The notes under the pieces: model-generated
Told to the model about the DNA's origin: nothing
Databases searched by the model: none
Seen by the model: the letters and a program-made list of their open reading frames with translations, nothing else
Position numbers and translations under genes: made by a program
Shown: piece by piece, positions 12,888 through 63,411 of the stretch
Layout: every line of letters begins with the position of its first letter
Numbering within the stretch: position 1 is the stretch's first letter
DNA from: an uncultured Anaerolineaceae bacterium
GTDB lineage: Bacteria; Chloroflexota; Limnocylindria; Limnocylindrales; CSP1-4
DNA length: 64,000 nucleotides
Direction of reading: 5' to 3'
NCBI GenBank assembly: GCA_964477545.1
Contig: CAYZEJ010000001.1
Coordinates: 11-64,010, forward strand

Positions 12888-14096
12888 GTGAGGCGGCCCC
12901 GCCTCAGGCCAGAAGCGCCGCCAGATCCGGCGCCCGGTGGAAACGCGGGTACCGGCCCTCCCGCGGACGGTGCCAGAGACCGCGCGTTCTCGATGCTGTC
13001 GATCGCGGGTTTCTCAGTTTCACTTGGCGCGTCAAGTCTCGTCCTGCCGCTGCTCGCAGTCGCGGCCGGGTACGACATCGCTGCCGTCGGTCTGTTCACG
13101 GCGATCTCGGCCGTCTCGCAGCTGCTGTTCAGGCTATGGCTGCCCTGGCTACTGACGCGCTTCCCCGACCGGAACCTGGTCATTACCGCCAACGTGATGA
13201 TGGTTGGTTCATTCGCCGCGCTTCTTTTCAGCACCGCGCTGCCGGCGTTTGTCACCGCACAACTACTCCAGGGCACGGCGCGCGCCCTTTTCTGGACAGC
13301 CACGCAGACGCACGCTGTGCGAAGTGCCGGGGGCCCTGTCCGGGCGCTCTCGATGGTCAACGCAGTCGGGAACCTCGGCCAGCTGGTTGCTCCCGCCATC
13401 GCTGGCGTGGTCGCGGCACAGTCGCTCGAGTGGGGCCTGGCGCTGTGTGCAGCGGCATCCGCGATCGGCCTCTTCACCGGCTTTGGCATGGCGCTGCTGC
13501 CGCCCTTTACCAAGCAGGCACGGCACGGCGAGCTGCGTATCTGGCGCCGGCCCGGCGTCGATGTAGCCTGCTGGGCCTCGTACAGTGCCGGCGGCTGGCG
13601 GGCCATGGTCATGTCGCTCGTACCTGCGGCGCTCGAAGCTGCGGGCCAGCCACGCGCGGTGATCGGGGTGCTGATGATGACGTCGGAGGCGACCGGCCTG
13701 GCCACAGCTGCCGTGCTCGTCCGCTTCCGCGTGCCTAACGTCCCGGCCGCCATCCAGCTCGCCGTTCTGATGCTCACCACCGCCCTTGTGTTGTTCCCGT
13801 TTGTGGCCTCGAACCCCGTCACCGCGGCGCTGGCGATGGCGCTCGGCGGGCTCGGGTCAGGCCTGCTGATGAGCCTCGGTCCGGCGCTGGCGACGATGTC
13901 CGTCCGACCCGAGGAGCGGGGCGAGGCGATCGCCGTGGCCGGTACGTTTCGCGCGGTGTCACTGCTGATCACGCCCGGAGCCGCCGCGATCGCCATCGGC
14001 GTCGTCACCCTGCCCGTGGGCATGGTCGTGGCTGGCCTGGTCATCGGCATTCCGCCGATCGTCGCTGGGCTTCTTCGGGCGACGCGCGCAACCTGA
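12888..14096 (+). CDS. MFS transporter (paralog 1)
   Basis: 12 predicted TM segments. About 70% identical to 47485-48678. Confidence 0.8.
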   Translation: MRRPRLRPEAPPDPAPGGNAGTGPPADGARDRAFSMLSIAGFSVSLGASSLVLPLLAVAAGYDIAAVGLFTAISAVSQLLFRLWLPWLLTRFPDRNLVITANVMMVGSFAALLFSTALPAFVTAQLLQGTARALFWTATQTHAVRSAGGPVRALSMVNAVGNLGQLVAPAIAGVVAAQSLEWGLALCAAASAIGLFTGFGMALLPPFTKQARHGELRIWRRPGVDVACWASYSAGGWRAMVMSLVPAALEAAGQPRAVIGVLMMTSEATGLATAAVLVRFRVPNVPAAIQLAVLMLTTALVLFPFVASNPVTAALAMALGGLGSGLLMSLGPALATMSVRPEERGEAIAVAGTFRAVSLLITPGAAAIAIGVVTLPVGMVVAGLVIGIPPIVAGLLRATRAT

Positions 14097-14138
14097 TTCG
14101 ATCACACCCACCCGAGCTGCCGACCAGAACGCATTAGG

Positions 14139-15122
14139 TCAGACGGGTTCGGGCAGCGGAAGCCCAACGCCCGACTCGATCGCGCGGCGATAGACAAGCT
14201 CGGCGACGGCCACGTCGTAAAGACCCATCCCGAAGCATTTGAACAACGTGACTTGGTCCTCACTGGTGCGGCCGGGCGTCCGGCCGGCGATGATCGCCCC
14301 GAGCTCGACGGCACGGCCGGAGGCGACCGCCTCGCCCACCTCGGGCGTCTCCTGCTCACGGGCCTGCTCGAGCGAGTCGACCGCGACAACCCCCGCAAGA
14401 GCGACCGTCGCGTCGTCAATCTCACGCCGCTCGCGGCCGGAAGCGATGTCGAGGCGGTACGACGAGCGAATTGAGACGACGTGCGTGCCTGGCGACAGCC
14501 ACTCCCCACGAAACACCGGCTGGGTCGCGCTGGTCGCGGCGATTACGATCTCGCACCCGCTCGCGGCGTCACGCACGTCGCTCACGGGATGAACTTTGAC
14601 TCCGAGCCGCTCGCCCATCTCGGAGGCAAACCGATCACGCCGGTGGGGAGTCGGGCTGAAGATCCGCACTTCGCTCAGCCGCCGTGCCGCCGCAGCCGCG
14701 AGCAACTGGGTCCGCGCTTGACGTCCGGCCCCGATCAGGCCCACAACGCTCGCCGACGGCCGCGCCATGTGGCGTACCGATACGCCGCCTGCCGCACCCG
14801 TCCGGTAGTCGGTGATCAGGTCGGACCAGAAGAGAGCCAACAGCTCGCCGGTGTCGGTGCTGTAGAGCACCTGGACGGACTCCTTGGTGACGCCGGGCGC
14901 GAAGTCGAAGCTCTGGATACCGGCCTTGGTGCCCATGACGCCACGGCTCGGCAGCGCGCCACTCATCGAACGGAACACGCCTTTTGGCACGCGCAATCGC
15001 TGGCGCGGCAGGTTGATCGCCGTGCCCTCGCATTGCTCGCGCAGCGCGGTCTCGACAGCGTCGAGCGCCTCGTCCATGCGCAGCAGCCGACCGACGTCGG
15101 CGTGCGACAGGAAGATCGCCAC
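14139..15122 (-). CDS. Ornithine cyclodeaminase / mu-crystallin family protein (paralog 1)
   Basis: OCD/mu-crystallin Rossmann region (VGLIGAGRQARTQL). Adjacent to UbiD 1. Confidence 0.85.
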   Translation of the reverse strand: MAIFLSHADVGRLLRMDEALDAVETALREQCEGTAINLPRQRLRVPKGVFRSMSGALPSRGVMGTKAGIQSFDFAPGVTKESVQVLYSTDTGELLALFWSDLITDYRTGAAGGVSVRHMARPSASVVGLIGAGRQARTQLLAAAAARRLSEVRIFSPTPHRRDRFASEMGERLGVKVHPVSDVRDAASGCEIVIAATSATQPVFRGEWLSPGTHVVSIRSSYRLDIASGRERREIDDATVALAGVVAVDSLEQAREQETPEVGEAVASGRAVELGAIIAGRTPGRTSEDQVTLFKCFGMGLYDVAVAELVYRRAIESGVGLPLPEPV

Positions 15123-15147: not shown

Positions 15148-16683
15148 TCACGCTCGGGCGCCCTCCTCCACCACGCCCGTTCCGTTGCCGGCCGAACTGT
15201 CAGCAGCCGTGCCATCAGTTGCGCCGCGGGCCGCGCCATCTCCGCTGCCATCGTTGGCCGGCTTGTTCAGGATCCAGCCCCAACGCTTGCGCGTTTCGCG
15301 CTTGGTCTCGACGTCCGGCCCGATCGTCCGCGGAAACCTGTCGCGCCACTCCCACGGGATCGTCGCGTCGTACAGCATCCGCGAGTTGAAGCCCTTGTGG
15401 TCGGGATGGATGGCGGGGTCGAGCGGGCCCGAATATGCGCGTTTAATGAGGTCGATCGAGCGCTCCGGATCGCCGCGCGTGACCATCGCCCAGACCACGT
15501 CCTCCAGGTCCGTCACGTCGATGTCTTCATCGACGACCACGACGATGCGCCCGAGGTAGGCCCCGGTGTGGCACATCGCTGCGACGTGCAGCGCCTGCCG
15601 GGAATGGCCAGCGTAGCGCTGCTGGATCGAGATGACGTTGAAGAGCCGCGTACCGCCCAGCGCGAAACACCATGCGTCGACCACGCCCGGCACGCCGGCC
15701 CGCTTGAGGTCGCGCAGCAGGAGGGCCGAGCGCAGGTGATCGCGGTAGCGCATCGGCTCCCAGGGCGGCTTGTTGGGCGGCACGCCGAGCAGGATGGGGT
15801 CGTTGCGGTGGTAGACCGCCTCGACCTCCATGAACGGCTCCTCATGCTCTCCTGAGGCGTAGTAGCCATGCCACTCGCCGAACGGGCCTTCCATCATCCA
15901 CTGGTCGTGGCGCAGGAAGCCCTCGAAGACGATTTCAGCGTGCGATGGGATCGGCAGCCCGGTAATAGGCCCCTTGACGACCGGATAAGGCTCGCCGCGA
16001 ATGCCGCCGAGCCAGTCGTACTCGGACACGCCGTAGGGCACCTCCAGCGTCGAGGCCATGAACAGCAGCGGATCCATGCCCAGGATGATCGCCACGGGCA
16101 TGGGCTCCTGGCGTTTGAAGTACACGTCACGGAACTGGATGCCGTGCTTGCCGGGCGAGATGTAAACGCCTACCCGCTTGTCATCGTGGACCTGCACACG
16201 GTATGTCCCGACGTTGATCCAATCCGAGTCGGGGTCCTTGATCACGACGCCGACGCCCGTGCCGATATAGCGGCCGCCATCGTGCGGATGCCACCACGGC
16301 GAGGGGAACTTCAGGACGTTGACATCGGCGCCCTTGTCGACGTTCTCGAAAACCTCGCCGCCATCCTGCACGGACGGTGGCACTGCGCGTCCGGCCTCCG
16401 TGAGCTCGAGGAAGCGGTCCATCAGTGGGCGCCGCTCGATGTCCTCCGGCAGGCCCAGTGTGAGCGCGAGCCGTGGCCGGGTGGCCAGGGCGTTGGCCAG
16501 GATGCGGTAGCCCGCTGGATAGTCCGGGATCTGATCAAAGATCACCGCGGGCGCGTCATCAGTGTGGTGGAGCATCTCGGTAACACGGCCGATATCCTCC
16601 TGCCACGAGGCTTCGGTAACCTCGCGCAGCTCGCCGCGCTGACGTACGCGCTCGATCCAGTCGCGCAGGTCGCGATACTCCAC
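15148..16683 (-). CDS. UbiD-family (prFMN-dependent) decarboxylase, paralog 1, with a Gly/Ala/Ser/Asp-rich C-terminal tail
   Basis: UbiD family with the EGPFGEWHG motif. 511 aa. Confidence 0.9.
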   Translation of the reverse strand: MEYRDLRDWIERVRQRGELREVTEASWQEDIGRVTEMLHHTDDAPAVIFDQIPDYPAGYRILANALATRPRLALTLGLPEDIERRPLMDRFLELTEAGRAVPPSVQDGGEVFENVDKGADVNVLKFPSPWWHPHDGGRYIGTGVGVVIKDPDSDWINVGTYRVQVHDDKRVGVYISPGKHGIQFRDVYFKRQEPMPVAIILGMDPLLFMASTLEVPYGVSEYDWLGGIRGEPYPVVKGPITGLPIPSHAEIVFEGFLRHDQWMMEGPFGEWHGYYASGEHEEPFMEVEAVYHRNDPILLGVPPNKPPWEPMRYRDHLRSALLLRDLKRAGVPGVVDAWCFALGGTRLFNVISIQQRYAGHSRQALHVAAMCHTGAYLGRIVVVVDEDIDVTDLEDVVWAMVTRGDPERSIDLIKRAYSGPLDPAIHPDHKGFNSRMLYDATIPWEWRDRFPRTIGPDVETKRETRKRWGWILNKPANDGSGDGAARGATDGTAADSSAGNGTGVVEEGARA

Positions 16684-16785
16684 GGTTTGCTACCTCCACA
16701 CGGTGGCACGGCCGATGCTTGCCTCGCCGGGACATCGTACAGAGTGTCACGATGTAGTGCGCAATCCAGTGCAGAAACGGTTGAC

Positions 16786-16831
16786 AGCAGCAATTGTTGT
16801 GTCAGCATCCTGTCAGGGGAGCAACCGTTGC
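16786..16831. promoter_or_regulatory. Divergent promoter region with GCAGCAATTGTTG and GCAACCGTTGC inverted repeats and TTGACA/TGTCA arms
   Basis: Variants of the GCAAC/GTTGC arm motif in the 261-bp divergent region between UbiD 1 and LLM 1. Confidence 0.4.
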
Positions 16832-16944
16832 GTGACGCGCACTTCAAGCCACTCAAATGGCATCGCGGCTGAGCGCGAGCAACACTCCGTCGGGCTGCTC
16901 GTAGCCAGATTGATGGAACAACTGCCACCGGGAGGACGTGCGTC

Positions 16945-18033
16945 GTGAAAGTGTCGATCGCCGAGCTGGGCGAAATGCCGCACGGCCGCTATCTGGACTT
17001 CGTGCGTCTGTGCGAGCTCCTGCGCTTCGACGGTTTCTACCACGCTGATGAGAAGTGGACTCGGGACGTCTGGTCGCGGCTGGGCATGGCGGCGACAGTC
17101 ACCAGCCGTATCCGCCTTGGACCGAGTGTCACCGACCCCGTAACTCGTCACCCGGCGCTGACCGCCCAGGCCGCGGCGACCTTGGCCGAGGCTACCCAGG
17201 GGAGGTTCCACCTGATGCTCGGAGCCGGAAGCCACTTCGAGACTCTGCCCGGGTTCGAGGTCAACCGGCCCGCCGCCGCCATCCGCGAAGCCATCGAGCT
17301 TTGCCGCCGGCTGTGGACGGGTGAGCGGGTCACGTACGAGGGCGAGATCGTGCGCTTCCTCGGCGGCAAGCTCGACTTCCCCCTTAGCCCGGAGTTGACG
17401 CCCAAGATATGGGTGGCGACGCGCGGCGTCCAGGTGCTGCGCATGGCCGGTGCTGTCGCCGATGGCGTCCTCGTCGGCAGCTTCGCGACCGACTGGGGCA
17501 TCAATTACGCGCGGGCCGAGATCGCCAAGGGCCTTGAGCGGTCGGGCCGCAGCTGGCAGGACATTACCCTCGCCAGCTGGCTGTACGTGTGCATCCTGCC
17601 GAATGCGGACGATCCTGTGCCCGAGGGCATCCGACGCGGCGTCAGCCACGCCCTGTGGAGCAGCCGGCCGATCATGGAGCCGCTCATCGACGCGCTTGCC
17701 GGCGAGGTTCCTGATGAGTTCCGCCGCTTCGTACGCGAAGCGCCGCACGAGTGGTCGCCGGAGGTGCTGGGTGAGTTGCGCCGCTTGATTCCGCGCAACC
17801 TGATCGACCAGATGTCCGTTGTAGGCACGGCCGAGCAGGTGACCGAGAAGCTGCTCAACCTCGAGCGTCTTGGCGTCCAGGAAATCGTGGTCTGGCCGTT
17901 CCCTCACGACGCCGGCGTCCAGACCACGGCCGACACGTCGGACGTTGAGGATTTCGTGGTCGACTTCGCCCAGAACGTCCTGCCACGGGTGCGACGCCAC
18001 GAGTCGCGCGGTGAATACACGCTGGTCGACTGA
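16945..18033 (+). CDS. LLM-class (luciferase-like) F420/flavin-dependent oxidoreductase (paralog 1)
   Basis: Luciferase-like monooxygenase fold. RBS GGGAGGA 7 nt before GTG. About 65% identical to 49756-50820. Confidence 0.85.
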   Translation: MKVSIAELGEMPHGRYLDFVRLCELLRFDGFYHADEKWTRDVWSRLGMAATVTSRIRLGPSVTDPVTRHPALTAQAAATLAEATQGRFHLMLGAGSHFETLPGFEVNRPAAAIREAIELCRRLWTGERVTYEGEIVRFLGGKLDFPLSPELTPKIWVATRGVQVLRMAGAVADGVLVGSFATDWGINYARAEIAKGLERSGRSWQDITLASWLYVCILPNADDPVPEGIRRGVSHALWSSRPIMEPLIDALAGEVPDEFRRFVREAPHEWSPEVLGELRRLIPRNLIDQMSVVGTAEQVTEKLLNLERLGVQEIVVWPFPHDAGVQTTADTSDVEDFVVDFAQNVLPRVRRHESRGEYTLVD

Positions 18034-18048: not shown

Positions 18049-19035
18049 ATGCTTCGATTGACCATTGCTACCGGCCTGTACGACCGCACTGCGGCGCTAC
18101 ACGATGGGCGCATCCGCCCGGAGGGCGTCGACGCCACTTGGCTGGCGCTCAACGTGGAGCAGATCTTCTGGCGCATGCTCCAGCACGGCGAGTTCGACGC
18201 CAGCGAGCTGTCGCTGGCGAGCTATGTGATCAGGCGCGATCAGGGCCATCGAGACCTGGTCGCCATCCCGGTCTACCTCTCGCGCACGTTCCGCCACGAC
18301 TGCATCTACGTCAACGCCGACGCGGGCATCAGCGAGCCTCGGGAGCTTGTCGGGCGGCGCGTGGGGGTGCCCGAGTACCAGATAACGGCGGCGGTCTTTG
18401 CCCGCGGCCTGCTGTCGGATGACTTCGACATCGATCCTCGTCAACTGGAGTGGCTGCAGGGTGGGCTCGAGGAGCCCGGCCGCGTGCCGCACACGAAGGT
18501 CGAGCTTCCCGCTGACATCCGCGTCTCCATGATCGGCGAGGACAAGACACTGGCGCGCATGCTCGAGGAGGGCGAGATCGACGCGCTGATCAGCCCACGT
18601 GTGCCCTCTACTTTCCGAAGCGGTCGGGGCAAGGTCGTACGGCTCTTCGAGAGCCCGTGGGCGCAAGCGCGCGACTACTACAGCCGAACCGGGATCTTCC
18701 CGATCATGCACCTGGTCGCGGTTCGTTCGGAGCTGGTCGAGGCCAACCCATGGCTGCCGCAGACGCTTGCACGGGCGTTCGGCGCGGCCAAGGCGATAGC
18801 TGACGCCAACCTGCGCGAGACAGCCGCGCTGCCGATCAGCCTGCCGTTCCTCGTGGAGCACTTCGAGCAGACCGCCGCTTTGATGGGCGCCGACTTCTGG
18901 CCGTACGGGGTGGAGGCCAACCGGCCGACGCTGGAGGCGTTCATCCGCTACGCCCACGAGCAAGGGCTTATCAAGGAGCGTCCCGCTATCGAGGAGCTCT
19001 TTCCGGCCAGCACCCAGCGAACGTCGCGACTATGA
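18049..19035 (+). CDS. PhtD-like protein (4,5-dihydroxyphthalate decarboxylase family, NMT1-related PBP fold), cytoplasmic, paralog 1
   Basis: N-terminus MLRLTIATGLYDRTAALHDGRIRPEG without a signal peptide. Family assignment is from memory of similarly annotated proteins. Confidence 0.65.
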   Translation: MLRLTIATGLYDRTAALHDGRIRPEGVDATWLALNVEQIFWRMLQHGEFDASELSLASYVIRRDQGHRDLVAIPVYLSRTFRHDCIYVNADAGISEPRELVGRRVGVPEYQITAAVFARGLLSDDFDIDPRQLEWLQGGLEEPGRVPHTKVELPADIRVSMIGEDKTLARMLEEGEIDALISPRVPSTFRSGRGKVVRLFESPWAQARDYYSRTGIFPIMHLVAVRSELVEANPWLPQTLARAFGAAKAIADANLRETAALPISLPFLVEHFEQTAALMGADFWPYGVEANRPTLEAFIRYAHEQGLIKERPAIEELFPASTQRTSRL

Positions 19036-19065
19036 AAACTGGCGCAGCAGCATTACTCTCAGGCA

Positions 19066-19079
19066 GCAACTCTTGTTGC
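19066..19079. promoter_or_regulatory. Inverted-repeat motif GCAACTCTTGTTGC (site 3) plus half-site CGCAACGATTG at 19093-19103
   Basis: Exact GCAAC-N4-GTTGC upstream of tctC. Confidence 0.5.
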
Positions 19080-19141
19080 AGGCTCGTATGATCGCAACGA
19101 TTGCGGCCGCGAGGTCGCGCAAGCGAGGAGGTCCTGTCCCG

Positions 19142-20221
19142 ATGTCGTGGAGCACAAGCCGAGCACGGGGAGCAGCATCGCTCCTGGCTGTGTTCACTCT
19201 GATTCTTGCCGGCTGTTCGGCCACGCCGGCGGCAACGACCACGCCAACCGCCCCAACTTCGACGGTCGCCCCGGCGACCATAGCGGCCACCCCGGACGCA
19301 TGTGCCGGCTTTCCGTCACGCGACATCGAGTTCGTCATTCCCTATGGGCCCGGCGGTGGCTTCGACACATGGGTGCGTCTCGTGGCTCCGGCCCTGCAGG
19401 GCCACCTGCCGAACGACGTCAACGTCGTGCCGGTCAACCGTGAAGGTGCCGGCGGCCTCGTCGGCGTGACCGAGGTGCTGAATACCGAGCCAGACGGTTA
19501 CACCATCGTCATCACCGAACCGGGCGTGCTGGCCACGCAACAGATCGCAGGCACGACTGACGCTAACTTCCGGGAACTGCGCGCAATCGGCCGGCTCACG
19601 GTCGGACCCGAGACCATCGTGGTGGCGAGCACGTCAGAGTGGCAGACGATCGAAGACGTGCAGGCGGCCGTTGACGAGGCGAATCCGCTGCTGATGGCGT
19701 CCGGCGGCATCGCGGCCATCAACATTGTCTCCTTCGACCAGCTTGAACTGCCCTACAATGACGTGGCGCACGACACGAGCTCCGACGCGCTGCTCAGCCT
19801 CATCCGCGGCGACACCGACATCGCGTTGTACCCGCTCACCTCTGTCGCGTCCGGAATCGAGGGCGGTGACCTCCGTCCGCTGGTCCTCATCGGCCCGGCG
19901 CCCGAGGCTGGCCAGCCCAACGCCGAACTGGCAGAAGGCGTGCCCAGCCTTGACGAATTAACGGGCAACGAGGGCATCGGCGATGCCCTGGCCCAGACGC
20001 GCATCGTGGCCGCGCCCCCGGCAACGCCCGACTGCGTGCTCGAGATTCTCGACCAGTCACTCGCTGACACATTCGCCGACGAGGACTTCCTCGCTCAGCT
20101 CGACGGGGCCGGGTTCATTCCCGTCCACGGTTCGGCCGAGACGGCGCAGGGCGTCATCGAGATCACCTACGAGACGCTCGAGCAGTACGAGGACCTGATT
20201 CGCGAGAACCTGGCCGAATAG
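19142..20221 (+). CDS. tctC: Tripartite tricarboxylate transporter substrate-binding protein TctC (Bug family), lipoprotein
   Basis: Lipobox LAGC and Ala/Thr/Pro-rich linker. RBS GAGGAGG 10 nt before ATG 19142. The track ORF starts earlier at 19073. Confidence 0.8.
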   Translation: MSWSTSRARGAASLLAVFTLILAGCSATPAATTTPTAPTSTVAPATIAATPDACAGFPSRDIEFVIPYGPGGGFDTWVRLVAPALQGHLPNDVNVVPVNREGAGGLVGVTEVLNTEPDGYTIVITEPGVLATQQIAGTTDANFRELRAIGRLTVGPETIVVASTSEWQTIEDVQAAVDEANPLLMASGGIAAINIVSFDQLELPYNDVAHDTSSDALLSLIRGDTDIALYPLTSVASGIEGGDLRPLVLIGPAPEAGQPNAELAEGVPSLDELTGNEGIGDALAQTRIVAAPPATPDCVLEILDQSLADTFADEDFLAQLDGAGFIPVHGSAETAQGVIEITYETLEQYEDLIRENLAE

Positions 20222-20261
20222 CGTTACGGCCTGAGGCTGTTCGGGGCGCGGGAAGAGCCGC

Positions 20262-22752: not shown

Positions 22753-22781
22753 CGCTGGATGACTCCATGGCCTGGTGTGAT

Positions 22782-22795
22782 GCAATCGTGGTTGC
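22782..22795. promoter_or_regulatory. Inverted-repeat motif GCAATCGTGGTTGC (site 4, one mismatch)
   Basis: Lies in the divergent region between the PNPOx-like gene and the 13-gene CoA operon. Confidence 0.4.
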
Positions 22796-22829
22796 AGCGA
22801 GCCTAGGTGGGTGAAACAATCGATGTCAA

Positions 22830-49754: not shown

Positions 49755-49755
49755 G

Positions 49756-53340: not shown

Positions 53341-53390
53341 GCTTGCGGTCTGCGGCATCGGAACGGAACCGCTTTGAGGAGGAATGTCGA

Positions 53391-54473: not shown

Positions 54474-54564
54474 TCGGCGAGCGGTAATTCGATCCAGGGT
54501 CAATCACCTGCAGTGTGGCCGGCGAGAGCCGGCCACACTGCACTTCTAACGGAGAAGGCCAGCC

Positions 54565-57107: not shown

Positions 57108-58619
57108 ATGTCGATGCTGGACCTGCGCGACTTCGTCGCGGCAGTCGAGAGAGAGCTGCCGGACAAGGTGGTTCACGTCGATCGGCCGGTGAATCCCGCC
57201 GACTTCGAGGTGACGGCGATCCTGCAGCAGCTCGAGGATGCCGGCCGCAATCCGATGGCGCTGTTCCATCGGCCTCTCAACCTCTTCGGCGAGGTCTCGA
57301 AGTTCCCGCTCCTGACCAATGTCTTTGCCGAGCGCGAACGGTGCGCCCTCGCCCTCGGGATGCCGCCGTCGGAGTCGAAGTTCCCGCTCAGTCTCGAGTA
57401 CGGCCGGCGCGAGAAGGAACGCATTCCGCCCACGGTGGTGCCGGTGTCCGAGGCACCCGTCAAGGACGTCGTGCAGTTCGGCGACGAGGCCGACCTGCGC
57501 CAGTTCCCCATAGTCCGACACCACCACATGGACCCGGCGGCCTACATTGACATGACCCCGATCATGCGCGACCCGGACACGGGCGCGTACAACGCCGCGT
57601 ATCTGCGCATGATGTACAAGGGCCCGCGTCGGCTGGGGCTGCACATGTCGCCGCGACACAACTGGCAGATCACCCGAAAGCACGAGGAGCGCGGCCTGCC
57701 GACTCGCGTTGCGATCGTGGTCGGCCACCACCCGGCGTTCTTTCTGGGGACGCTCAACGTCGCGCCGTTCGGTGACGACGACTACGAGGTCATCGGCGCG
57801 GTGGCCGGCCAATCGCTTCGGCTCACGCCGTCGGCCACCTGGGGCGACGAGTTCATGATCCCGGCCGACGCGGACATAATCATCGAGGGTGAGATCCCTC
57901 CGGGTGTGCGCGAGGTCGAGGGCCCCTTCGGCGAGTTCCCGGGGACCTACGGGCCGCAGCGCCTGCGCTGGGTCATCGACGTGACGGCCATCAACCACCG
58001 CCACAATGCGATCTACCAGGACGTGTTCGTCGGCCACGCCGATGACTGGATCCAGGGCGGCCTGCCCAAAGAGGCCAGGATCTACAACCGGATCAAAGGC
58101 GTCGTGCCCTCAGTCACCGCCGTGCATCTGCCGGTTTCGGGCGTCTGCAGGCTGCACTGCAACGTTTCCATTGACAAGAAGGTCGATGGTGAGTCGAAGC
58201 AGGCCGCCTTCATCGTCCTCGGCGAAGTCGACATGATCAAGCACGTCTTCATCGTCGATGCGGACATCGATGTGTTCGACGATCGCCAGGTGCTGTGGGC
58301 CGTAGCGACGCGCGTTCAGGCAGATCAGGCCATCGACATCATCAAGAATGTCAAAGGCAATACGCTCGACCCGTCCCAGACGGACCCGATCATGACGACC
58401 AAGATGATCGTGGACGCCACGAAGCCGGTGCAGCGCCCATTCTCGGAGCGCATCATGGTCCCCGAAGAGGCGAAGCAGCGGGTGCCGATCGCGGAATTCG
58501 TCAGGGAGAGCGGGGAGCAGCCAGCATACGAGCCAGACACGGGCGCGGACTCGCAGGACGAGGCAGGGGAGGCAAGCGCTGCCGAGCCCGTGGTGGCGAC
58601 GCGCGGCGGGGGGGCCTGA
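57108..58619 (+). CDS. UbiD-family decarboxylase (paralog 3; VdcC/BsdC-like hydroxyarylic acid decarboxylase type)
   Basis: EGPFGEFPG motif. RBS GAAGGAGG 7 nt before ATG 57108. Followed by a small Cys-rich ORF. Confidence 0.9.
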   Translation: MSMLDLRDFVAAVERELPDKVVHVDRPVNPADFEVTAILQQLEDAGRNPMALFHRPLNLFGEVSKFPLLTNVFAERERCALALGMPPSESKFPLSLEYGRREKERIPPTVVPVSEAPVKDVVQFGDEADLRQFPIVRHHHMDPAAYIDMTPIMRDPDTGAYNAAYLRMMYKGPRRLGLHMSPRHNWQITRKHEERGLPTRVAIVVGHHPAFFLGTLNVAPFGDDDYEVIGAVAGQSLRLTPSATWGDEFMIPADADIIIEGEIPPGVREVEGPFGEFPGTYGPQRLRWVIDVTAINHRHNAIYQDVFVGHADDWIQGGLPKEARIYNRIKGVVPSVTAVHLPVSGVCRLHCNVSIDKKVDGESKQAAFIVLGEVDMIKHVFIVDADIDVFDDRQVLWAVATRVQADQAIDIIKNVKGNTLDPSQTDPIMTTKMIVDATKPVQRPFSERIMVPEEAKQRVPIAEFVRESGEQPAYEPDTGADSQDEAGEASAAEPVVATRGGGA

Positions 58620-58623: not shown

Positions 58624-58872
58624 TTGGCCACGATCTTCTACGTCCATTGCCCGCGCTGCAACGGCAAGTTTCCCTGCCACCAGGAGTTGTGGCAGGTCGA
58701 GTACTCGCTGCTCTGTCCGTTCTGCCAGCTGAGCTTCCACCAGGAAGAGAGCCCGCTGATCATCTCCGCGACTGGCGAACGGAAGCCTGGTTCGCGCATC
58801 AAAAGCTTCGCCGCGATCGCTGCGCCGGTCGATGGCGACGTTGACCCGTCGGCGAACGCCGAGTCCATGTAG
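58624..58872 (+). CDS. Small Cys-rich zinc-ribbon protein (82 aa), candidate BsdD/VdcD-like partner of the UbiD decarboxylase
   Basis: TTG start 4 nt after the UbiD stop. CPRCNGKFPC...CPFCQ motifs. Analogy to the small D subunits of bsdBCD/vdcBCD-type operons is inferred from position and size, not from sequence recall. Confidence 0.5.
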   Translation: MATIFYVHCPRCNGKFPCHQELWQVEYSLLCPFCQLSFHQEESPLIISATGERKPGSRIKSFAAIAAPVDGDVDPSANAESM

Positions 58873-58909: not shown

Positions 58910-60013
58910 TCAGGGATGGACGTCCTCCAGGAACCAGTCGGTGGGGATCTCCCTGCCTATGCCGCGTTCGCGTGCCCGCTCATAGGCGAGCGCGGCCACT
59001 GCCGCGAACTGGAGGCCCGTGCCAATGGTGTTAACAAAGCAGGTGTGAGCTGCTGACTGCGGTGCAGGCACCCGGCCGCTGATGAGCTCGGCGAGGTCGG
59101 GCTGGCGGGTCAGGTCGACCGTGCCTGCCTGCCGCTGGGCACGCAGTGACTTCGCGTCGTCGTTCACGCCCTCTTCCGGATCATGGGCATAGATCGGTTG
59201 CTCGCCCATGCCCACAACATAGTTGGCCGGTCGATCCGCACGCGTGTGGACGACAACCTGCGCGGCGCGCTCCAGCACTCCGGGACCCAGTTCCAGCTCC
59301 TTCACGCACGTGACATGGGCATGGGGCTTCAGCCAATCCGCCTCGATCACCGGGGTGATGCTGTTCGTGGCGCTGCCGACGATGTCTGCGCCCTCGGCAG
59401 CCTCGCGCGCAGATCCCGCCGGCCTCACACTGATGCCCAGCTCCTGGGCGAGCTCTGCCGCGACGCGCTCGCGATTGGCTCGATTCGGGCTGAAGACGCG
59501 GATCTCCTTGATCGGTCGCACCGCGCACATGGCCCACGCCTGAGCGTGCGCCTGCCAGCCTGATCCCAGGAGGCCGTACGTTTCGGCTCGCTCGACGGCC
59601 ATGTAGCGCGCCGCAAGCGCGTTCGTGCCGGCGACGCGCATCCGTTGCATCACGCCGTCGGGCATGATGGACAGGGGCTCGCCGGTTCGCGTACTGAACA
59701 GCAGGACGAGTCCGACGTACTTGCCGTTGCCGGCCGCCGGGTGCTTCTCCTTGCGAACGCCGTCCTTGGCCACCCGCCAGCGGATCACGTCGGAGTTGAG
59801 CCGAAGGACGGCCACCTCGCGGATCGGGAGCATGCCGTCCATGGTTTTGAAGACGTACCTGCCGTTCTCGTCGCTCGGACCGAACATGTCGCTTCGTGGC
59901 CTGCTGATCGCGCGCCGTTCGGCCAGCTCAACGTAGCTCTCGTGGAGGCGCTCGATGCATTGATCGATGTGAAGGAGCGCGGCTATTTCGTCGTTGTCCA
60001 GCAACAGCGTCAT
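58910..60013 (-). CDS. Ornithine cyclodeaminase / mu-crystallin family protein (paralog 2)
   Basis: OCD family (LLGSGWQAHAQ Rossmann region). Confidence 0.85.
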   Translation of the reverse strand: MTLLLDNDEIAALLHIDQCIERLHESYVELAERRAISRPRSDMFGPSDENGRYVFKTMDGMLPIREVAVLRLNSDVIRWRVAKDGVRKEKHPAAGNGKYVGLVLLFSTRTGEPLSIMPDGVMQRMRVAGTNALAARYMAVERAETYGLLGSGWQAHAQAWAMCAVRPIKEIRVFSPNRANRERVAAELAQELGISVRPAGSAREAAEGADIVGSATNSITPVIEADWLKPHAHVTCVKELELGPGVLERAAQVVVHTRADRPANYVVGMGEQPIYAHDPEEGVNDDAKSLRAQRQAGTVDLTRQPDLAELISGRVPAPQSAAHTCFVNTIGTGLQFAAVAALAYERARERGIGREIPTDWFLEDVHP

Positions 60014-60060: not shown

Positions 60061-61089
60061 CTATTCGGCGGGCTCCCACGCGATCGTGCTCGGCGCGAAC
60101 AGATCCTCGAGCGCGATATCCGTTGTCGTGAGCCCCTGCTCGCGACTGTGCCGTATCAACCGCTCCAGTGCCACGCGGTTGGCCCTGATCCCGTAGGGGA
60201 ATGGATCCGGCCCAAACCACGACTTCACCTGGGCAAGGAACTCCCAGCGAAACACGAGACCCAGCGGCACGGACTCGACCGGGTCCTTTTCGGCCAGCGC
60301 CTTTGCCTCCAGGAACGCCTGGTAGATGTTGAGCGCGAGCCAGGGATGTTTCCGCGCGAGCTCGCCGCGGATCACGTACGTGTGGTTAATCGGGATGAAC
60401 CCGTGCGCTTCGAAGAAGCGCCGGCCCTCGGCGATCCCGTCGCCGAACGCGGGAACGACCGTGCTCCAGTCGCCCGAGCCCTGGATGCGCTGCGAACGCT
60501 CGATGACGTTGTCGGCGCCGACCGTCCGGTTGGGGCGGACGAAAGCCGCGTCCAGCTTGCCACCGAGGAGCATCGAGGCGAGGCTCTCGTCGGGCGGAAT
60601 TCGCTTGAGCGAGATGCCCATAGGTGGGGCGAAGCCGGTCGCCCCGCCGTGACTCGTCGACTCGCCACGCTCCATGAACCAGCTGATCGACGACGGCTTA
60701 ACGCCGAAGTCGTGCTCGAGCACCGCCCGAAGCCAGACGGCCGCGGTCTGCTGATACTCCGGTACGCCGACCCGCTTGCCGGCCAGATCGGACGGCTTGT
60801 GGATGTTGGCGTCCGCGCGGGCGTCGAGCTCGATCTGGAAGAAGCGCCGTGACGGAAACGCGGGGATCGCGACGAGGTCGATCCCGCGCTCTTTAGCCAT
60901 CAGGAACGACGACAGGGACATCTCCGAAACGTCGAAGTCGGCGAACCGGAGTTGGCGCCAGAAGATCTCACCGGGGTGGCCGATGGTGGGGATCAATTCG
61001 ACCCCGTCAGGACGGACGATGCCGTCGACGAGAGGTCGGACGCGCTCGTTGATTCGCGTCGCGAAGGAAAGCTGCAAGCGCTTCATCAA
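60061..61089 (-). CDS. PhtD-like protein (paralog 4)
   Basis: Same NMT1-related family as the other three paralogs. No signal peptide. Confidence 0.65.
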   Translation of the reverse strand: MMKRLQLSFATRINERVRPLVDGIVRPDGVELIPTIGHPGEIFWRQLRFADFDVSEMSLSSFLMAKERGIDLVAIPAFPSRRFFQIELDARADANIHKPSDLAGKRVGVPEYQQTAAVWLRAVLEHDFGVKPSSISWFMERGESTSHGGATGFAPPMGISLKRIPPDESLASMLLGGKLDAAFVRPNRTVGADNVIERSQRIQGSGDWSTVVPAFGDGIAEGRRFFEAHGFIPINHTYVIRGELARKHPWLALNIYQAFLEAKALAEKDPVESVPLGLVFRWEFLAQVKSWFGPDPFPYGIRANRVALERLIRHSREQGLTTTDIALEDLFAPSTIAWEPAE

Positions 61090-61117: not shown

Positions 61118-62476
61118 TCAGAGCGAGACGGCGGCGGTCAACGCGGCGATCGACGGCGACGACTCGAGTGAATCGACGGCTGCGACGATCGACGAGACGC
61201 GGTCGCTGAAGCCGATCGCGACGGCGGACCGGTCGAGCTTCTGCCGGACCTCGTCGGCCGAGAGTGGCCGCCGCGGATCGCCCGGTGGGATGTCCACCTG
61301 TTGCACGAACTCTCGGCCCGCCCGGTCGCGCAGAGTCACCCGGGCGCCGGTCGTTGCCAGGGTTGCGTCCTCCGCGACGACAACGGACTCCGTAGCGAAG
61401 AGTCCGACTCCCGCATCGGCTCGCCGCTCGTCGGCCGTCTGATCGAGCCATGCCTCGCCGTCCGCGAGGACAACCGCAACGGTCCAGCGCGCCGACTGGA
61501 GCGCGGCGAGGCGTGTCTGCCAGCCTGAGCTGCCGTTCAGGGAGAAGGCGCGCGGCGGAAGGTTGACGCGCACGTCGGCAACAGTGGCAAGCCCGGCGGC
61601 CCCAATGGGCAAACCGAGCTGGCCGCGTATGGCGAGCGTGGCATCAATGACCGGCTGAAGCGAGCTCGCGCCCGGCCAGCGCCGCAGCGCTATCGACTCA
61701 AGGAGGTAGTCCGAGCCCAAGCGGTCTGTGAGGCGTTCCATGCGGCCGGTATCGGCGTACGCCGCGAGGAGCCCGCCGCGAGTGGCCGTCAGAGCCGCTT
61801 CCGAGGCGTCGATGCCCGCAGCAGCGAGCTCTGCCGAAAGTAAGCCCGACACCCCGCCGCGGGCCTGATGAACCTTGACACCGCTCGTGCCCAGCGCCGC
61901 AAAGGTGCCGGCCGCTTGACTCGCCGCATGCCCAATCGCGAAGCGGACGCCGCGCCCGTCGAGCCGTGCCACGCGCGCGGCGGCGCATGCTGCGCCGATC
62001 GCGCCCGCGATGCCAGGGTTGTGCCACCCGCGCGCCTCATACGCGTCAGTGTGCAGAGCCTCAGCGACACGGACGGAGACCTCCATCCCCGCCGCAATAC
62101 CGGCGAGCACATCAGCGCCGGTGGCTCCATGCAGCTCGGCGGCGGCAAGTGAGGCGGGCAAGACTTCAGGCAACACGTGCGTCAGCGTCTCGCGGTGCAC
62201 GTCGCCCAGCGTCGGGGCCGCGATCTGGAAACCGTTGAGCATCGCGGCGCCGCCAGCAGCTCTCGGTGTCCCGGCCAGCACCGTCGACGTGCCAGTTCCG
62301 AACACAGACTCGGCCACCGACTCCATCTCGGAATGGTGCTCGGCGAGCACTCCGGCCAGACCGCACGCGAGGGCATCCAAGATGTGCAGCCGTACGCGCT
62401 CCAGGATGCCCGGAGGCATGTCCGCCGGCCGAAGGCTGGAGACGAACTCGGACAGAGTTTCCTCGGCGGTCGTCAC
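61118..62476 (-). CDS. MmgE/PrpD family protein (2-methylcitrate dehydratase / cis-aconitate decarboxylase family)
   Basis: MmgE/PrpD N-terminal region (LHILDALACGLAG). GTGA overlap with the upstream LLM gene. Confidence 0.85.
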   Translation of the reverse strand: MTTAEETLSEFVSSLRPADMPPGILERVRLHILDALACGLAGVLAEHHSEMESVAESVFGTGTSTVLAGTPRAAGGAAMLNGFQIAAPTLGDVHRETLTHVLPEVLPASLAAAELHGATGADVLAGIAAGMEVSVRVAEALHTDAYEARGWHNPGIAGAIGAACAAARVARLDGRGVRFAIGHAASQAAGTFAALGTSGVKVHQARGGVSGLLSAELAAAGIDASEAALTATRGGLLAAYADTGRMERLTDRLGSDYLLESIALRRWPGASSLQPVIDATLAIRGQLGLPIGAAGLATVADVRVNLPPRAFSLNGSSGWQTRLAALQSARWTVAVVLADGEAWLDQTADERRADAGVGLFATESVVVAEDATLATTGARVTLRDRAGREFVQQVDIPPGDPRRPLSADEVRQKLDRSAVAIGFSDRVSSIVAAVDSLESSPSIAALTAAVSL

Positions 62477-63411
62477 ATTGAGAAGGATTCGCGGACGGCG
62501 TCGGCGAGCTCGCGCTGCGCGCTCCGGTACGGCCCGACCACATCCACCTGGAATCGGCGCATCACATGCTGCATGTCGTCCGAATCGGAGTTGGCCTCGA
62601 ACACGACAACGAACTCGTCCACGCCGATCTCATCGAACGCAAGCAGCTCCTGAACCATTGTCTGAGGGGCGCCGTGGAGGCTGTAGACCGGACCTGGCGG
62701 GGCGTCGAACCTGACCCTGGAGCGGACCGACAGTGCGGGCCGCGGCCGACCGGCCGCGCGCGCCCGTTCCAGCAGGACGCGCCACCGCTCGCGCAGGTCC
62801 TGAGGCCCCGTTTGGCTGGCGTGGTAGCCGTCGCACAGCGTCGCGGCACGGGTGAGGGCAGCGTCGGAGCGCCCACCCATCCAGATCGGCAGCGCCGCCC
62901 CCTGGGGTGGCAGGGGATCGAATACGAACCCGTCCAGTCGGTGAAACCGACCCTCGAACGGCTCGGTCCGACCGGCCCACAGGTGCCGCCACAGCGCGAT
63001 TGTCTCGTCCAGGTAGGCACCCCGATGGTTCATGCGATCGGCCTTGCCGAGGTTGCCCCACTCCGGTGCGTCCGTCCGGTCGCCGACGCCCACGCCCACG
63101 ATCAGCCGCCCGCCGCTGAGAACGTCGATCGTGGCAAGCTCCTTGGCCAACTGCGGTGCATCCCGCATCGCTGGGACGACGACGCTCGTGCCGATACGCA
63201 GGGAAGAGTGACGCCCCGCAACCCATGCGAGGGTCGTGACAGCCTCGAGGATGGAGCCATAGGTCGCCGCTTCGGCTCTGGGTGAAACAAGCATGTGATC
63301 CGTCGCCCAGACACTCGACCAGCCGAGGCTCGAGGCAGTCGCAGCGGCGTCATCGACGGCCGCCGGGGACACCCGTTTACCCATGGTCGGGAGGATGAGG
63401 CCGAAGCGCAT
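62473..63411 (-). CDS. LLM-class F420/flavin-dependent oxidoreductase (paralog 3, Rv2161c-like)
   Basis: MRFGLILPTMG start at 63411. The track ORF extends to 63462. Confidence 0.8.
   Translation of the reverse strand: MRFGLILPTMGKRVSPAAVDDAAATASSLGWSSVWATDHMLVSPRAEAATYGSILEAVTTLAWVAGRHSSLRIGTSVVVPAMRDAPQLAKELATIDVLSGGRLIVGVGVGDRTDAPEWGNLGKADRMNHRGAYLDETIALWRHLWAGRTEPFEGRFHRLDGFVFDPLPPQGAALPIWMGGRSDAALTRAATLCDGYHASQTGPQDLRERWRVLLERARAAGRPRPALSVRSRVRFDAPPGPVYSLHGAPQTMVQELLAFDEIGVDEFVVVFEANSDSDDMQHVMRRFQVDVVGPYRSAQRELADAVRESFSM

Follow-up and report, generated by a model that had tools for sequence, protein, structure and literature searches.

A conserved, decarboxylase-rich gene cluster of an uncultured Chloroflexota bacterium as a candidate system for the degradation of polycarboxylated (hetero)aromatic acids

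UbiD enzymes are sought as reversible (de)carboxylation catalysts, and several described systems for ring acids draw on the enzyme families considered here. The hmf cluster on a plasmid of Cupriavidus oxalaticus (HmfFG and HmfABCDE) serves 2,5-furandicarboxylate and 2-furoate, and PhdA/PhdB of Mycobacterium fortuitum is a UbiX-dependent decarboxylase system for an N-heteroaromatic acid, phenazine-1-carboxylate. o-Phthalate is degraded aerobically through 4,5-dihydroxyphthalate decarboxylase and anaerobically through succinyl-CoA:phthalate CoA-transferase and phthaloyl-CoA decarboxylase. The 6-hydroxyquinolinate decarboxylase of Alcaligenes sp. UK21 is cofactor-independent and has been described as "similar to phthalate decarboxylases" (PMC6644310). 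As far as we found, the PhtD-like family is thus represented by one characterised reaction, that of 4,5-dihydroxyphthalate decarboxylase, and by this older cofactor-free pyridine-dicarboxylate decarboxylase described as similar. Here we analyse a stretch of 64,000 nucleotides (the window; 67% G+C) from an uncultured Anaerolineaceae bacterium of the Chloroflexota (assembly GCA_964477545.1, contig CAYZEJ010000001.1, positions 11–64,010 of the forward strand), in which about 54 kb (window positions 9.8–63.5 kb) form a catabolic region of several operons rich in UbiD and PhtD-like genes.

Genes were called by third-position GC, and about 59 of them were annotated with Pfam and NCBIfam. The whole of 9.8–63.5 kb is probably one regulon of at least eight transcription units for the import and degradation of a (hetero)aromatic acid with two or more carboxyl groups, a reading that we hold with moderate confidence. 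The region appears to be an aromatic-acid catabolic cluster in which known enzyme families stand in an undescribed, conserved and co-regulated combination. An earlier note on this DNA had proposed a degradation system for aromatic or heterocyclic carboxylates; its core claim is strengthened by synteny and by a shared operator-like site, while several of its details had to be corrected. The families that it named are present where it placed them (confirmed by Pfam and NCBIfam for MFS, OCD, UbiD, LLM, MmgE/PrpD, UbiX and CoA-transferase), and its parts list omitted a molybdenum hydroxylase (37414–41731), an RpiR regulator, the Tct, ABC and Liv transporters and the CoA-ester modules, all of which lie in the same conserved neighbourhood.

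A shared palindrome and conserved gene neighbourhoods

Comparison of the intergenic regions revealed a palindrome of 16 bp, TGCAAC-N4-GTTGCA, with nine sites in the window at two or fewer mismatches, against an expectation of 1.59 and a maximum of 5 from 100 shuffles. Each of the nine is either intergenic or placed at the 5' boundary of a called open reading frame (ORF), and the 13-mer AACGATTGTTGCA is identical at three of them. From left to right, CGCAACGATTGTTGCA (12788–12803) is positioned between the DUF35a and MFS1 genes, AGCAACTCTTGTTGCA (19065–19080) upstream of tctC, TGCAATCGTGGTTGCA (22781–22796) upstream of the acyl-CoA dehydrogenase (ACAD) gene and CGCAAAAGTTGTTGCA (41727–41742) in the divergent promoter region of the molybdenum hydroxylase and the RidA-ABC genes. 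A further CGCAACGATTGTTGCA (47336–47351) precedes MFS2, followed by TGAAACGTCCGTTGCA (48676–48691) upstream of PhtD2, GGCAACATTTGTTGCT (53287–53302) upstream of the NMT1-type binding-protein gene and CGGAACGATTGTTGCA (63466–63481) upstream of LLM3. The remaining site, TGCAACGGATGTTGCG (35862–35877), is an orphan just past the stop codon of DUF35b, between convergent genes.

The same palindrome recurs in related loci (designated L001, L002 and so on). It precedes tctC in L083–L086, L089 and L090, the binding-protein gene in L096, L097 and L099, the LLM3 orthologs in L002, L093 and L096–L100 and the CoAT-PhtD-LLM operon in Jiangella, and it also lies between the molybdenum hydroxylase and the PhtD2-type gene in L093. 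Its density is 0.093 per kb in related loci versus 0.027 per kb in other loci. We read the palindrome as a putative shared operator-like site, and its conservation is the strongest evidence for one regulon. The candidate binder is the RpiR/SIS-family regulator (30111–31055, + strand; Pfam HTH_6 and SIS), the product of the sole transcription-factor gene in the region, whose ortholog (68% identity) lies between the molybdenum hydroxylase and UbiX genes in L092. A sigma-54 promoter was considered as another reading of the palindrome and was ruled out, as the -24 GG of the consensus is absent and the element is a true inverted repeat.

For the analysis of synteny, about 100 loci were gathered by searching genomes with PhtD1 and metagenomes with PhtD4 (which gave 10 loci) and by homolog look-ups, and were compared with all window proteins; the co-occurrence statistics rest on about 20 related loci. 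In L096, L097 and L099, close relatives whose UbiD3 is 83–91% identical to that of the window, the order is CoAT_b-CoAT_c (a CoA-transferase pair), enoyl-CoA hydratase (ECH), flavin reductase, UbiD of the UbiD1 type, PhtD3, binding protein, ABC, UbiD3 and its small subunit, convergent with PhtD4-PrpD-LLM3. Within 21 kb, L092 holds an LLM2-type gene, UbiD3 with the small subunit, PhtD4, an ABC transporter, PhtD2, the accessory, FAD and Mo subunits of the hydroxylase, RpiR, UbiX, a UbiD1-type gene, a flavin reductase and an MFS transporter. L093 combines an ABC transporter, UbiD3 with the small subunit, the molybdenum hydroxylase, PhtD2, PhtD4-PrpD-LLM3 and an MFS transporter, and L087 reads CoAT-ECH-PhtD1-(PhtD-like)-TctCAB-thiolase-DUF35-LLM1-(PrpD-like). 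In Jiangella asiatica (L001), CoAT-PhtD2-LLM2-TctC-TctA-UbiD1-MFS lie on a single strand. All related loci whose flanks extend far enough (L002, L093 and L096–L100) contain the LLM3-PrpD-PhtD4 triad. Furthermore, UbiD1-like genes cluster with PhtD-like, OCD-like and Tct genes in three loci of distant anaerobes (L003, L071, L075). Genes that are widely separated in the window stand next to each other in other genomes, and this synteny supports one functional system.

The relatives also redraw the three modules of the earlier note: Module A (MFS1-OCD1-UbiD1, then LLM1-PhtD1), Module B (MFS2-PhtD2-LLM2-UbiD2 remnant-PhtD3) and Module C (LLM3-PrpD-PhtD4-OCD2, convergent with UbiD3 and its small subunit). 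Its gene families and coordinates were right and the boundaries of Modules B and C were wrong, for in the close relatives the order is UbiD-PhtD3-binding protein-ABC-UbiD3-small subunit, which places the "UbiD2 remnant-PhtD3" half of Module B in the Module C operon. Module C recurs at 66–85% identity in a Chloroflexi metagenome-assembled genome (L002).

These neighbourhoods bear on the view that there is no single system at all, only a catabolic island of unrelated operons that share enzyme families by chance. Most of the distant PhtD-like genes (45–53% identity) do sit in other contexts, without these neighbours; Module A has no strong palindrome at its main divergent promoter; and the window carries rearrangement scars, namely a UbiD2 pseudogene, an aldehyde dehydrogenase (ALDH) fragment and a truncated permease at 9330–9611. 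However, the parts repeatedly co-localise in compact clusters of independent contigs, and the conserved palindrome stands in front of eight units, so that we regard a chance assembly as improbable.

Decarboxylases and the genes around them

Two intact UbiD genes are present. The predicted products, prFMN-type decarboxylases (prenylated FMN), are UbiD1 (15148–16683, - strand) and UbiD3 (57108–58619, + strand; the start at 57108 is the public gene call). Each carries UbiD_N, UbiD and UbiD_C, the three-domain architecture of the family, and passes the TIGR00148 cut-off of 245 (scores of 283 and 293). They are 28% identical to one another and fall into different clades: UbiD1 is PhdA-like, with phenazine-1-carboxylate decarboxylase (7PDA) as its best Protein Data Bank (PDB) match at 333 bits and the next best at 183, and UbiD3 is HmfF-like, with the 2,5-furandicarboxylate decarboxylase PtHmfF (6H6V) as its best match at 273 bits. 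Against Fdc1- or TtnD-type enzymes the two score 84–155 bits only. Orthologs of UbiD1 are 70–75% identical in L001, L096, L097 and L099, and those of UbiD3 are 82–91% identical in six loci.

The third UbiD counted by the earlier note is a pseudogene. UbiD2 (51301–52238, + strand) covers the equivalents of UbiD1 residues 128–234 and 276–473 in two different frames, with a frameshift at 51621, and has lost residues 1–127 and about 235–275. An ALDH remnant of the N-terminal 160 residues (50831–51310, + strand; found by tblastn, 60% identical to residues 1–160 of the ALDH at 26822–28267) is joined to it at about 51301–51310, and the same junction occurs in an independent assembly (L081) that is 100% identical to window positions 46753–51350. 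The UbiD2 fragments share 75–81% identity with UbiD1 and 95–97% with the intact UbiD that occupies this position in L096, and in comparison with L097 a deletion of about 123 nt is seen. The near-identity to the intact L096 gene marks the pseudogene as a recent loss by local rearrangement.

The prFMN cofactor of these UbiD enzymes would be made by the UbiX-family flavin prenyltransferase (9778–10401, - strand; Pfam Flavoprotein, 141 bits), the last gene of a DUF35-thiolase-SDR-UbiX transcription unit. The ubiX that the earlier note had placed here is borne out by two NCBIfam models, VdcB (296 against a cut-off of 290) and TIGR00421 (252 against 109), and the protein is 59% identical to an annotated UbiX of Aromatoleum EbN1. 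In L092, L096 and L097 a Flavin_Reduct gene adjoins the UbiD1-type gene and has no counterpart in the window; its product may provide the FMNH2 needed in prFMN synthesis or may work with an LLM.

UbiD3 is accompanied by a CxxC...CxxC zinc-ribbon protein of 82 amino acids (58624–58872, + strand), whose ORF is always directly 3' of the UbiD3 orthologs and whose Cys9, Cys12, Cys31 and Cys34 are invariant in six orthologs. Pfam, NCBIfam and the PDB contain no sequence match to this protein, known UbiD partner subunits included, and from the gene arrangement it is presumed to be the small subunit of UbiD3. In comparison with the two-subunit VdcCD type, UbiD3 scores 260 against the VdcC cut-off of 650.

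The four PhtD-like proteins are members of four subfamilies: PhtD1 (18049–19035, + strand; subfamily 1), PhtD2 (48771–49754, + strand; subfamily 2), PhtD3 (52246–53235, + strand; subfamily 3) and PhtD4 (60061–61089, - strand; subfamily 4). The family counts more than 7000 homologs at E ≤ 1e-3, and no Pfam or NCBIfam model passes for any of the four. The name "PhtD-like" is nevertheless justified by full-length homology and by the family-invariant polar residues. PhtD1 (E 1.3e-90, 44% identity) and PhtD4 (E 2.2e-56, 36% identity) match the solved 4,5-dihydroxyphthalate decarboxylase 9jp7 over the full length, PhtD2 and PhtD3 are 45% and 35% identical to it, and in an alignment of 86 sequences all four keep the invariant or near-invariant R64, E75, R101, R140, D199, H242, D303, Y307, N312 and Q326 (9jp7 numbering). 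The proteins begin at the conserved core, which leaves no room for a signal peptide, and they are predicted to be cytoplasmic enzymes of the periplasmic-binding-protein (PBP) fold and the 4,5-dihydroxyphthalate-decarboxylase family.

Each subfamily has its own setting. Orthologs of PhtD1 (78–82% identical) precede TctCAB in L083, L087 and L089, and those of PhtD2 (67–71%) occur in L001, L002, L092 and L093, directly adjoining the molybdenum hydroxylase in the last two. PhtD3 orthologs (73–79%) always follow a UbiD1-type gene in L096, L097 and L099, and PhtD4 orthologs are 70–84% identical. In L083 and L089 a class-II aldolase-fold protein adjoins PhtD1. The locus of an uncultured deltaproteobacterium (L075, 1–17357) is a dense decarboxylase cluster with four UbiD genes, two cupins, TctCAB, an OCD-like and a PhtD-like gene, a metallo-beta-lactamase-fold protein, a tungsten-type aldehyde:ferredoxin oxidoreductase (AFOR) with a ferredoxin, and an Amidohydro_2 protein. 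Both the Amidohydro_2 family and the class-II aldolase fold include decarboxylases of hydroxyaromatic acids. Another locus, L091 (P0068 context), is full of transposases.

According to the earlier note, the paralogs are 65–80% identical and derive from an old duplication. The range holds approximately for MFS1/MFS2 (68%), PhtD1/PhtD2 (64%), LLM1/LLM2 (60%) and UbiD1 against the UbiD2 fragments (75–81%), and fails for PhtD3, PhtD4, LLM3, OCD2 and UbiD3 (26–37%); PhtD3 and PhtD4, for example, are 30–37% identical to the other PhtD-like proteins, and LLM3 is 26–30% identical to LLM1 and LLM2. An old duplication as the origin of all paralogs did not stand, for each has closer orthologs in other genomes. 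Each PhtD, LLM and UbiD paralog has orthologs of its own at 70–91% elsewhere, and PhtD2 and LLM2 are 70% and 73% identical to their Jiangella homologs versus 64% and 60% to PhtD1 and LLM1. The paralogs are thus old, separately conserved subfamilies and not a lineage-specific expansion, and a recent duplication within the genome is ruled out on the same ground.

The molybdenum hydroxylase (37414–41731, - strand; Pfam) consists of three ORFs. The first encodes a fused [2Fe-2S] and molybdenum cofactor (Moco) subunit of 999 amino acids (38732–41731, - strand), with the alpha subunit of 4-hydroxybenzoyl-CoA reductase as best PDB match (221 bits). The second is the FAD subunit (37731–38735, - strand) with an insertion of about 50 amino acids, the four cysteines of which (Cys127, Cys137, Cys146 and Cys164) are conserved in L092 and L093. 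The third is an accessory protein of 106 amino acids (37414–37734, - strand) that has no Pfam match. In the window, in L092 (11025–11438) and in L093 (5503–5922), the FAD subunit gene is always followed by a gene for such a small protein, 106–139 amino acids long and with the conserved motif AVHRGF in its C-terminal part. The cysteine insertion presumably recalls the extra [4Fe-4S] loop of the beta subunit of 4-hydroxybenzoyl-CoA reductase and of PaoB, and may indicate low-potential electron transfer or a reductive reaction. An identity as 4-hydroxybenzoyl-CoA reductase was rejected, since the scores of 325 (alpha, cut-off 995) and 152 (beta, cut-off 405) are far below the equivalog cut-offs and show family likeness only. 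Orthologs of the enzyme (58–70%) adjoin the PhtD2-type and UbiD3 genes in L092 and L093.

Three luciferase-like oxidoreductases (LLM) are encoded. LLM1 (16945–18033, + strand; Pfam Bac_luciferase; best PDB matches Mer, 121 bits) and LLM2 (49756–50820, + strand; Pfam and NCBIfam; orthologs of 73% in L001 and L092) are Mer-like, and LLM3 (62473–63462, - strand) is of the F420 type, with 170.9 against the TIGR03619 cut-off of 166.9. The top NCBIfam models of LLM1 and LLM2 are also F420-type (Mer, 140 bits), all below cut-off, as are the top 14 matches of LLM1, which, judged by these relatives, is probably F420-dependent. The earlier note had an LLM and a PhtD-like gene side by side in all three modules, as a suggested functional couple. 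They are adjacent in Modules A and B, and in Module C the PrpD gene lies between LLM3 and PhtD4. Direct adjacency of type-1/2 LLM and PhtD genes is seen only in the window and in Jiangella; the two share a cluster in L087 and L092, and the association is absent in L083, L089 and L093. An obligate couple is not supported by this synteny.

Two members of the ornithine cyclodeaminase/mu-crystallin family (OCD), 29% identical to each other, are encoded at 14139–15122 (OCD1, - strand; Pfam, 207 bits) and 58910–60013 (OCD2, - strand; Pfam, 111 bits). OCD1 resembles NAD(P)-dependent imine reductases; its best solved relative is a delta1-pyrroline-2-carboxylate reductase (6t3e, 154 bits), and it scores below every NCBIfam cut-off. 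OCD2 lies between the gene of the 82-residue protein and PhtD4 only in the window and is not there in L002, L093, L096, L097 and L099, and OCD2-like genes adjoin PhtD-like and UbiD genes in L070, L071 and L075. The MmgE/PrpD-family protein (61118–62476, - strand; Pfam) is closest to IRG1/cis-aconitate decarboxylases (IRG1/CAD). Its PDB matches span 52–73 bits, with IRG1/CAD at 65–73 bits followed by iminodisuccinate epimerase; no NCBIfam model matches at 1e-10, and no 2-methylcitrate dehydratase was found in the PDB at 1e-5. On these matches, an identity as the 2-methylcitrate dehydratase PrpD was rejected.

The transporters are numerous (all on the + strand; Pfam). They comprise MFS1 (12888–14096; MFS_1), MFS2 (47485–48678), the tripartite tricarboxylate-type TctC-TctA-TctB (19073–22282), a Liv-type ABC transporter encoded with a RidA-family protein (41714–47021; a Peripla_BP_6 binding protein, two permeases and two ATPases) and an NMT1/SsuA-type ABC transporter (53295–57052; binding protein, ATPase and two permeases). 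The three binding proteins are encoded at 19073–20221 (TctC), 42254–43657 (Liv-type) and 53295–54473 (NMT1-type). Orthologs of the Liv system (72–81%) adjoin PhtD1-TctCAB-MFS-ALDH in L089, and those of the NMT1/SsuA-type system (68–87%) occur in L096 and L097.

Three groups of genes are related to CoA esters (Pfam). A short-chain dehydrogenase/reductase (SDR; 10438–11175), an SCP-x-type thiolase-like protein (11205–12482) and the DUF35/ChsH2 OB-fold protein DUF35a (12334–12819), all on the - strand, form a set (10438–12819) that we take to resemble the Bbs-type (BbsABCD) genes of beta-oxidation and thiolysis. The two-subunit family-III CoA-transferase (CoAT_b, CoAT_c; 31045–33497, + strand) is followed by an ECH, a thiolase-like protein and the DUF35 protein DUF35b (33494–35859, + strand). 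CoAT orthologs (51–63%) head UbiD/PhtD operons in L096, L099 and L087, and those of ECH (53–71%), thiolase (79%) and DUF35 (60%) lie inside the PhtD/UbiD clusters of L087, L096 and L097. An ACAD, a family-III CoA-transferase, a MaoC hydratase and an HpcH/CitE-like lyase (22830–26825, + strand) have weak NCBIfam matches to succinate-glutarate/mesaconate CoA-transferases and RipC/Ccl, all below cut-off, and may form a CoA module for C5-dicarboxylates of the itaconate or mesaconate type. Beyond it lie an ALDH (26822–28267, + strand), orthologs of which (65–66%) occur near PhtD1-TctCAB in L083 and L089, and a thiamine diphosphate (ThDP) enzyme of the acetolactate-synthase superfamily (28324–30159, + strand), both with all NCBIfam matches below cut-off.

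These genes invite a different reading, in which the cluster would serve aliphatic tricarboxylates or unsaturated dicarboxylates of the aconitate, itaconate or alkylcitrate type, with the UbiDs acting on alpha,beta-unsaturated acids and the PhtD-like proteins on enol or beta-keto acids. A "tricarboxylate" transporter of the Tct type is in the cluster, the PrpD-family protein is closest to cis-aconitate decarboxylase, and the ACAD-CoAT-MaoC-CitE-like set resembles itaconate degradation, beside the Bbs-like CoA modules. Against this, UbiD1 and UbiD3 score far higher with PhdA and HmfF than with Fdc1-/TtnD-type enzymes, no obvious role is left for the molybdenum hydroxylase and the imine reductases, and the only characterised enzyme of the PhtD family acts on an aromatic ring. 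We therefore consider aliphatic substrates quite unlikely.

The housekeeping genes at 1–9233 (YqeY, a 7TM-HD protein, YbeY, DUF1684, Pth and Mfd) indicate that the region is chromosomal. The catabolic region starts past a truncated ABC-permease ORF directly after mfd (9330–9611, - strand; 93 amino acids), which matches only the C-terminal part of the permease domain (profile positions 103–182 of 184) and is probably a gene fragment at the edge of the region. Two small ORFs on the + strand (4196–4432 and 4521–4724) lie within the 964-bp gap between DUF1684 and pth; judged by eye from their translations, they look like a type II toxin-antitoxin pair with a Phd/YefM-like antitoxin (78 amino acids) and a RelE/ParE-like toxin (67 amino acids). 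A 221-residue ORF at 22279–22944 (- strand) extends into the start of the ACAD gene and spans an operator-like site; it has no Pfam match and a lower third-position GC of 0.73. It is probably not a real gene, and with it discounted a non-coding stretch of 547 bp separates tctB from the ACAD gene. Membership of a DUF1989 protein (36166–37344, - strand; Pfam, weak NCBIfam matches) in the system is uncertain; its gene was not seen in related loci. No tRNA or Rfam family was found in the window.

A possible route and its substrates

The proposed function rests first on the concentration of decarboxylase families, with two intact UbiDs and a UbiX, four PhtD-like proteins and an IRG1-like PrpD. Second, the nearest characterised relatives in the comparison act on (hetero)aromatic carboxylates or cyclic imino acids (listed as PhdA, PtHmfF, 4,5-dihydroxyphthalate decarboxylase, 4-hydroxybenzoyl-CoA reductase, delta1-pyrroline-2-carboxylate reductase and Mer). 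Third, beside the synteny and the palindrome described above, UbiD, PhtD-like, OCD and Tct genes are found together again in the distant anaerobes, and the UK21 enzyme and the architecture of the hmf cluster offer precedents.

The comparisons above establish the family assignments, the conserved gene neighbourhoods, the shared conserved palindrome and the pseudogene state of UbiD2; in the scheme that follows we infer the substrate class, the order of the steps, the cofactor use of LLM1 and LLM2 and the identity of the regulator. The acid would be taken up by TctCAB, the two MFS proteins and the NMT1-type and Liv-type ABC transporters. UbiD1 and UbiD3, the latter with its zinc-ribbon subunit, would use prFMN from UbiX to remove those carboxyl groups that no ring hydroxyl activates. 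The molybdenum hydroxylase would then add a water-derived hydroxyl or oxo group, its usual reaction on electron-poor N-heteroaromatic rings, and this hydroxyl would let the cofactor-free PhtD-like enzymes remove further carboxyls via the keto tautomer, as 4,5-dihydroxyphthalate decarboxylase does; the four subfamilies would presumably serve one intermediate or positional isomer each. Next, the F420-type LLMs and the OCD-type imine reductases could reduce the pyridone-like or hydroxylated ring. After ring opening, the product would be converted to CoA esters and central metabolites by the two-subunit CoA-transferase, ACAD, ECH/MaoC, SDR, thiolase-DUF35, CitE-like lyase, IRG1-like PrpD, ALDH and ThDP enzyme. 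Expression would be coordinated by the RpiR-type regulator bound to TGCAAC-N4-GTTGCA.

As to the ring, an N-heteroaromatic (pyridine-type) polycarboxylate is tentatively favoured over a carbocyclic benzene polycarboxylate, which we think rather unlikely. The tilt comes from the molybdenum hydroxylase, the imine-reductase-type OCDs, the Mer-like LLMs, RidA and the PhdA-like and HmfF-like UbiDs. In its fullest form the proposal would be a new route for a natural N-heteroaromatic polycarboxylate, with carboxyls stripped by the prFMN decarboxylases, the molybdenum hydroxylase and the four PhtD-like enzymes, and with reductive dearomatisation by LLM and OCD enzymes, free of oxygenases. Candidate substrates are the dipicolinate of spores, quinolinate, other pyridine di- or tricarboxylates and melanin-derived pyrrole polycarboxylates. 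This complete version we hold to be unlikely; if true, it would give the first functions to several PhtD-like subfamilies and to two uncharacterised UbiD clades.

Several observations weigh against the proposed system. No substrate-specific ortholog was found, and the scores for all specific NCBIfam equivalog models fall far short of the cut-offs. The annotated window genes include no candidate for a ring-cleaving dioxygenase, an amidase or any other hydrolase that could open the ring, and the scheme has no assigned enzyme for this step. Aliphatic dicarboxylates of no relation to the system might be what the CoA modules process. LLM1 and LLM2 are F420-dependent only by prediction, and the clusters of some relatives carry a flavin reductase. 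With regard to regulation, the UbiD1|LLM1 promoter (16684–16944), the strongest promoter region of Module A, has no good copy of the palindrome, the copy at 35862 lies between convergent genes, and RpiR is absent within 10 kb in several related loci; since an LLM gene directly follows DUF35 in L087, the site at 35862 may be the relic of a lost promoter. Moreover, the window belongs to a metagenome-assembled contig, and all evidence rests on the sequence of uncultured organisms.

The defined and conserved context of the four PhtD-like subfamilies, with an operator-like site and a candidate regulator, makes substrate discovery practical. The locus also supplies two uncharacterised UbiD clades, one of them with a new type of small zinc-ribbon partner. 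Taken together, the comparison suggests that an oxygenase-independent degradation of polycarboxylated aromatic or heteroaromatic acids is common to uncultured Chloroflexota of soil and several other phyla.

Comparison with characterised systems

The statement of the earlier note that this is not a described pathway was upheld. No characterised system matches in gene content, the paralogs do not cluster with an already characterised pathway of identical gene content, and the closest characterised enzymes are 24–48% identical or weak family-level matches. By sequence comparison, no window protein appears to be the ortholog of an enzyme from a characterised pathway. Literature searches, judged by titles and abstracts, returned no description of this gene combination.

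The known o-phthalate pathways, aerobic or anaerobic, have some evidence in their favour: the PhtD-like proteins are true homologs of 9jp7, and a two-subunit family-III CoA-transferase, a UbiD and a UbiX are all present. The aerobic enzyme shares with the window proteins its family, PBP-like fold, cytoplasmic location and invariant residues. However, PhtD1–4 are only 35–45% identical to 9jp7, compared with 60–67% for the PhtD-like proteins of other loci, and the window has four PhtD-like subfamilies. Neither a Rieske dioxygenase nor a dihydrodiol dehydrogenase was found among the approximately 59 window genes scanned, which excludes the aerobic pathway.

The anaerobic phthalate module is encoded on plasmid 2 of strain EbN1. 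The earlier analogy with it holds at the family level and no closer. The family-III CoA-transferase pair of the island is 33% and 37% identical to CoAT_b and CoAT_c and matches them in order, and, like EbN1, the relatives L096 and L099 have the CoA-transferase pair in the same operon as a UbiD. The 527-residue UbiD beside the EbN1 CoA-transferases is, in both of its copies, 24% identical to UbiD1 and UbiD3, and orthology to phthaloyl-CoA decarboxylase was rejected at this identity. The island has a third UbiD of 504 amino acids (WP_011255029.1; L094, 74091–75605), placed after an ABC transporter, with a UbiX-UbiD (527 aa) pair on either side. Its identity to UbiD1 is 48%, which counts in favour of the phthalate reading, and we know of no function assigned to this third UbiD. 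The comparison with the plasmid island and the lack of dioxygenase genes ruled out the known phthalate pathways as an identification, and such a reading of the region is very improbable.

The hmf cluster (L108) resembles the window in its UbiD, UbiX, TctC, Mo hydroxylase of the xanthine dehydrogenase (XDH) family, CoA activation and crotonase-fold ECH. A variant furan pathway, for hydroxymethylfurfural (HMF), 2,5-furandicarboxylate (FDCA) or 2-furoate, would let UbiD3 and UbiX act on FDCA, replace the furoyl-CoA ligase by the CoA-transferase, and assign the Mo enzyme to furoyl-CoA and the ECH to hydrolysis of the product. The best solved relative of UbiD3 is PtHmfF, JGI gives proteins of its 90%-identity cluster the name "2,5-furandicarboxylate decarboxylase 1", and the canonical cluster has the same architecture, including a three-subunit Mo hydroxylase. 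The identities to the window are 27–47% overall and only family-level for HmfF (34%), HmfA (27%), HmfB (27%) and HmfE (32%); orthology to the cluster is not supported at 27–34%. Unlike the hmf cluster, the window has a CoA-transferase pair instead of a ligase, fused Fe-S/Moco subunits and the four-cysteine insertion of the FAD subunit, and it adds a second UbiD clade, four PhtD-like proteins, three LLMs, two OCDs and an IRG1-like protein. A furan pathway has no role for the four PhtD-like proteins, three LLMs, two OCDs, PrpD and second UbiD, and in L092 and L093 the Mo hydroxylase has PhtD-like genes around it and none for a CoA-activating enzyme within 10 kb. We attach little probability to it.

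The dibenzothiophene 4S pathway couples the LLM monooxygenase DszA to the PBP-fold desulfinase DszB. By analogy, an LLM-class gene stands here beside a cytoplasmic PBP-fold enzyme that would expel a small oxyanion or oxide from an aromatic carbon. In contrast to DszA, LLM1 and LLM2 look F420-type and not FMNH2-monooxygenase-type, and the adjacency is not conserved across relatives. The relation of UbiD1 to PhdA is likewise at the family level only, PhdA being a UbiX-dependent decarboxylase of an N-heteroaromatic acid. For the preferred reading of an (N-hetero)aromatic polycarboxylate system, the UK21 route is a likeness by description: hydroxylation comes first and is followed by a non-oxidative decarboxylation of a pyridine dicarboxylate of the PhtD type, the same succession that the molybdenum hydroxylase and the PhtD-like enzymes of the window would follow.

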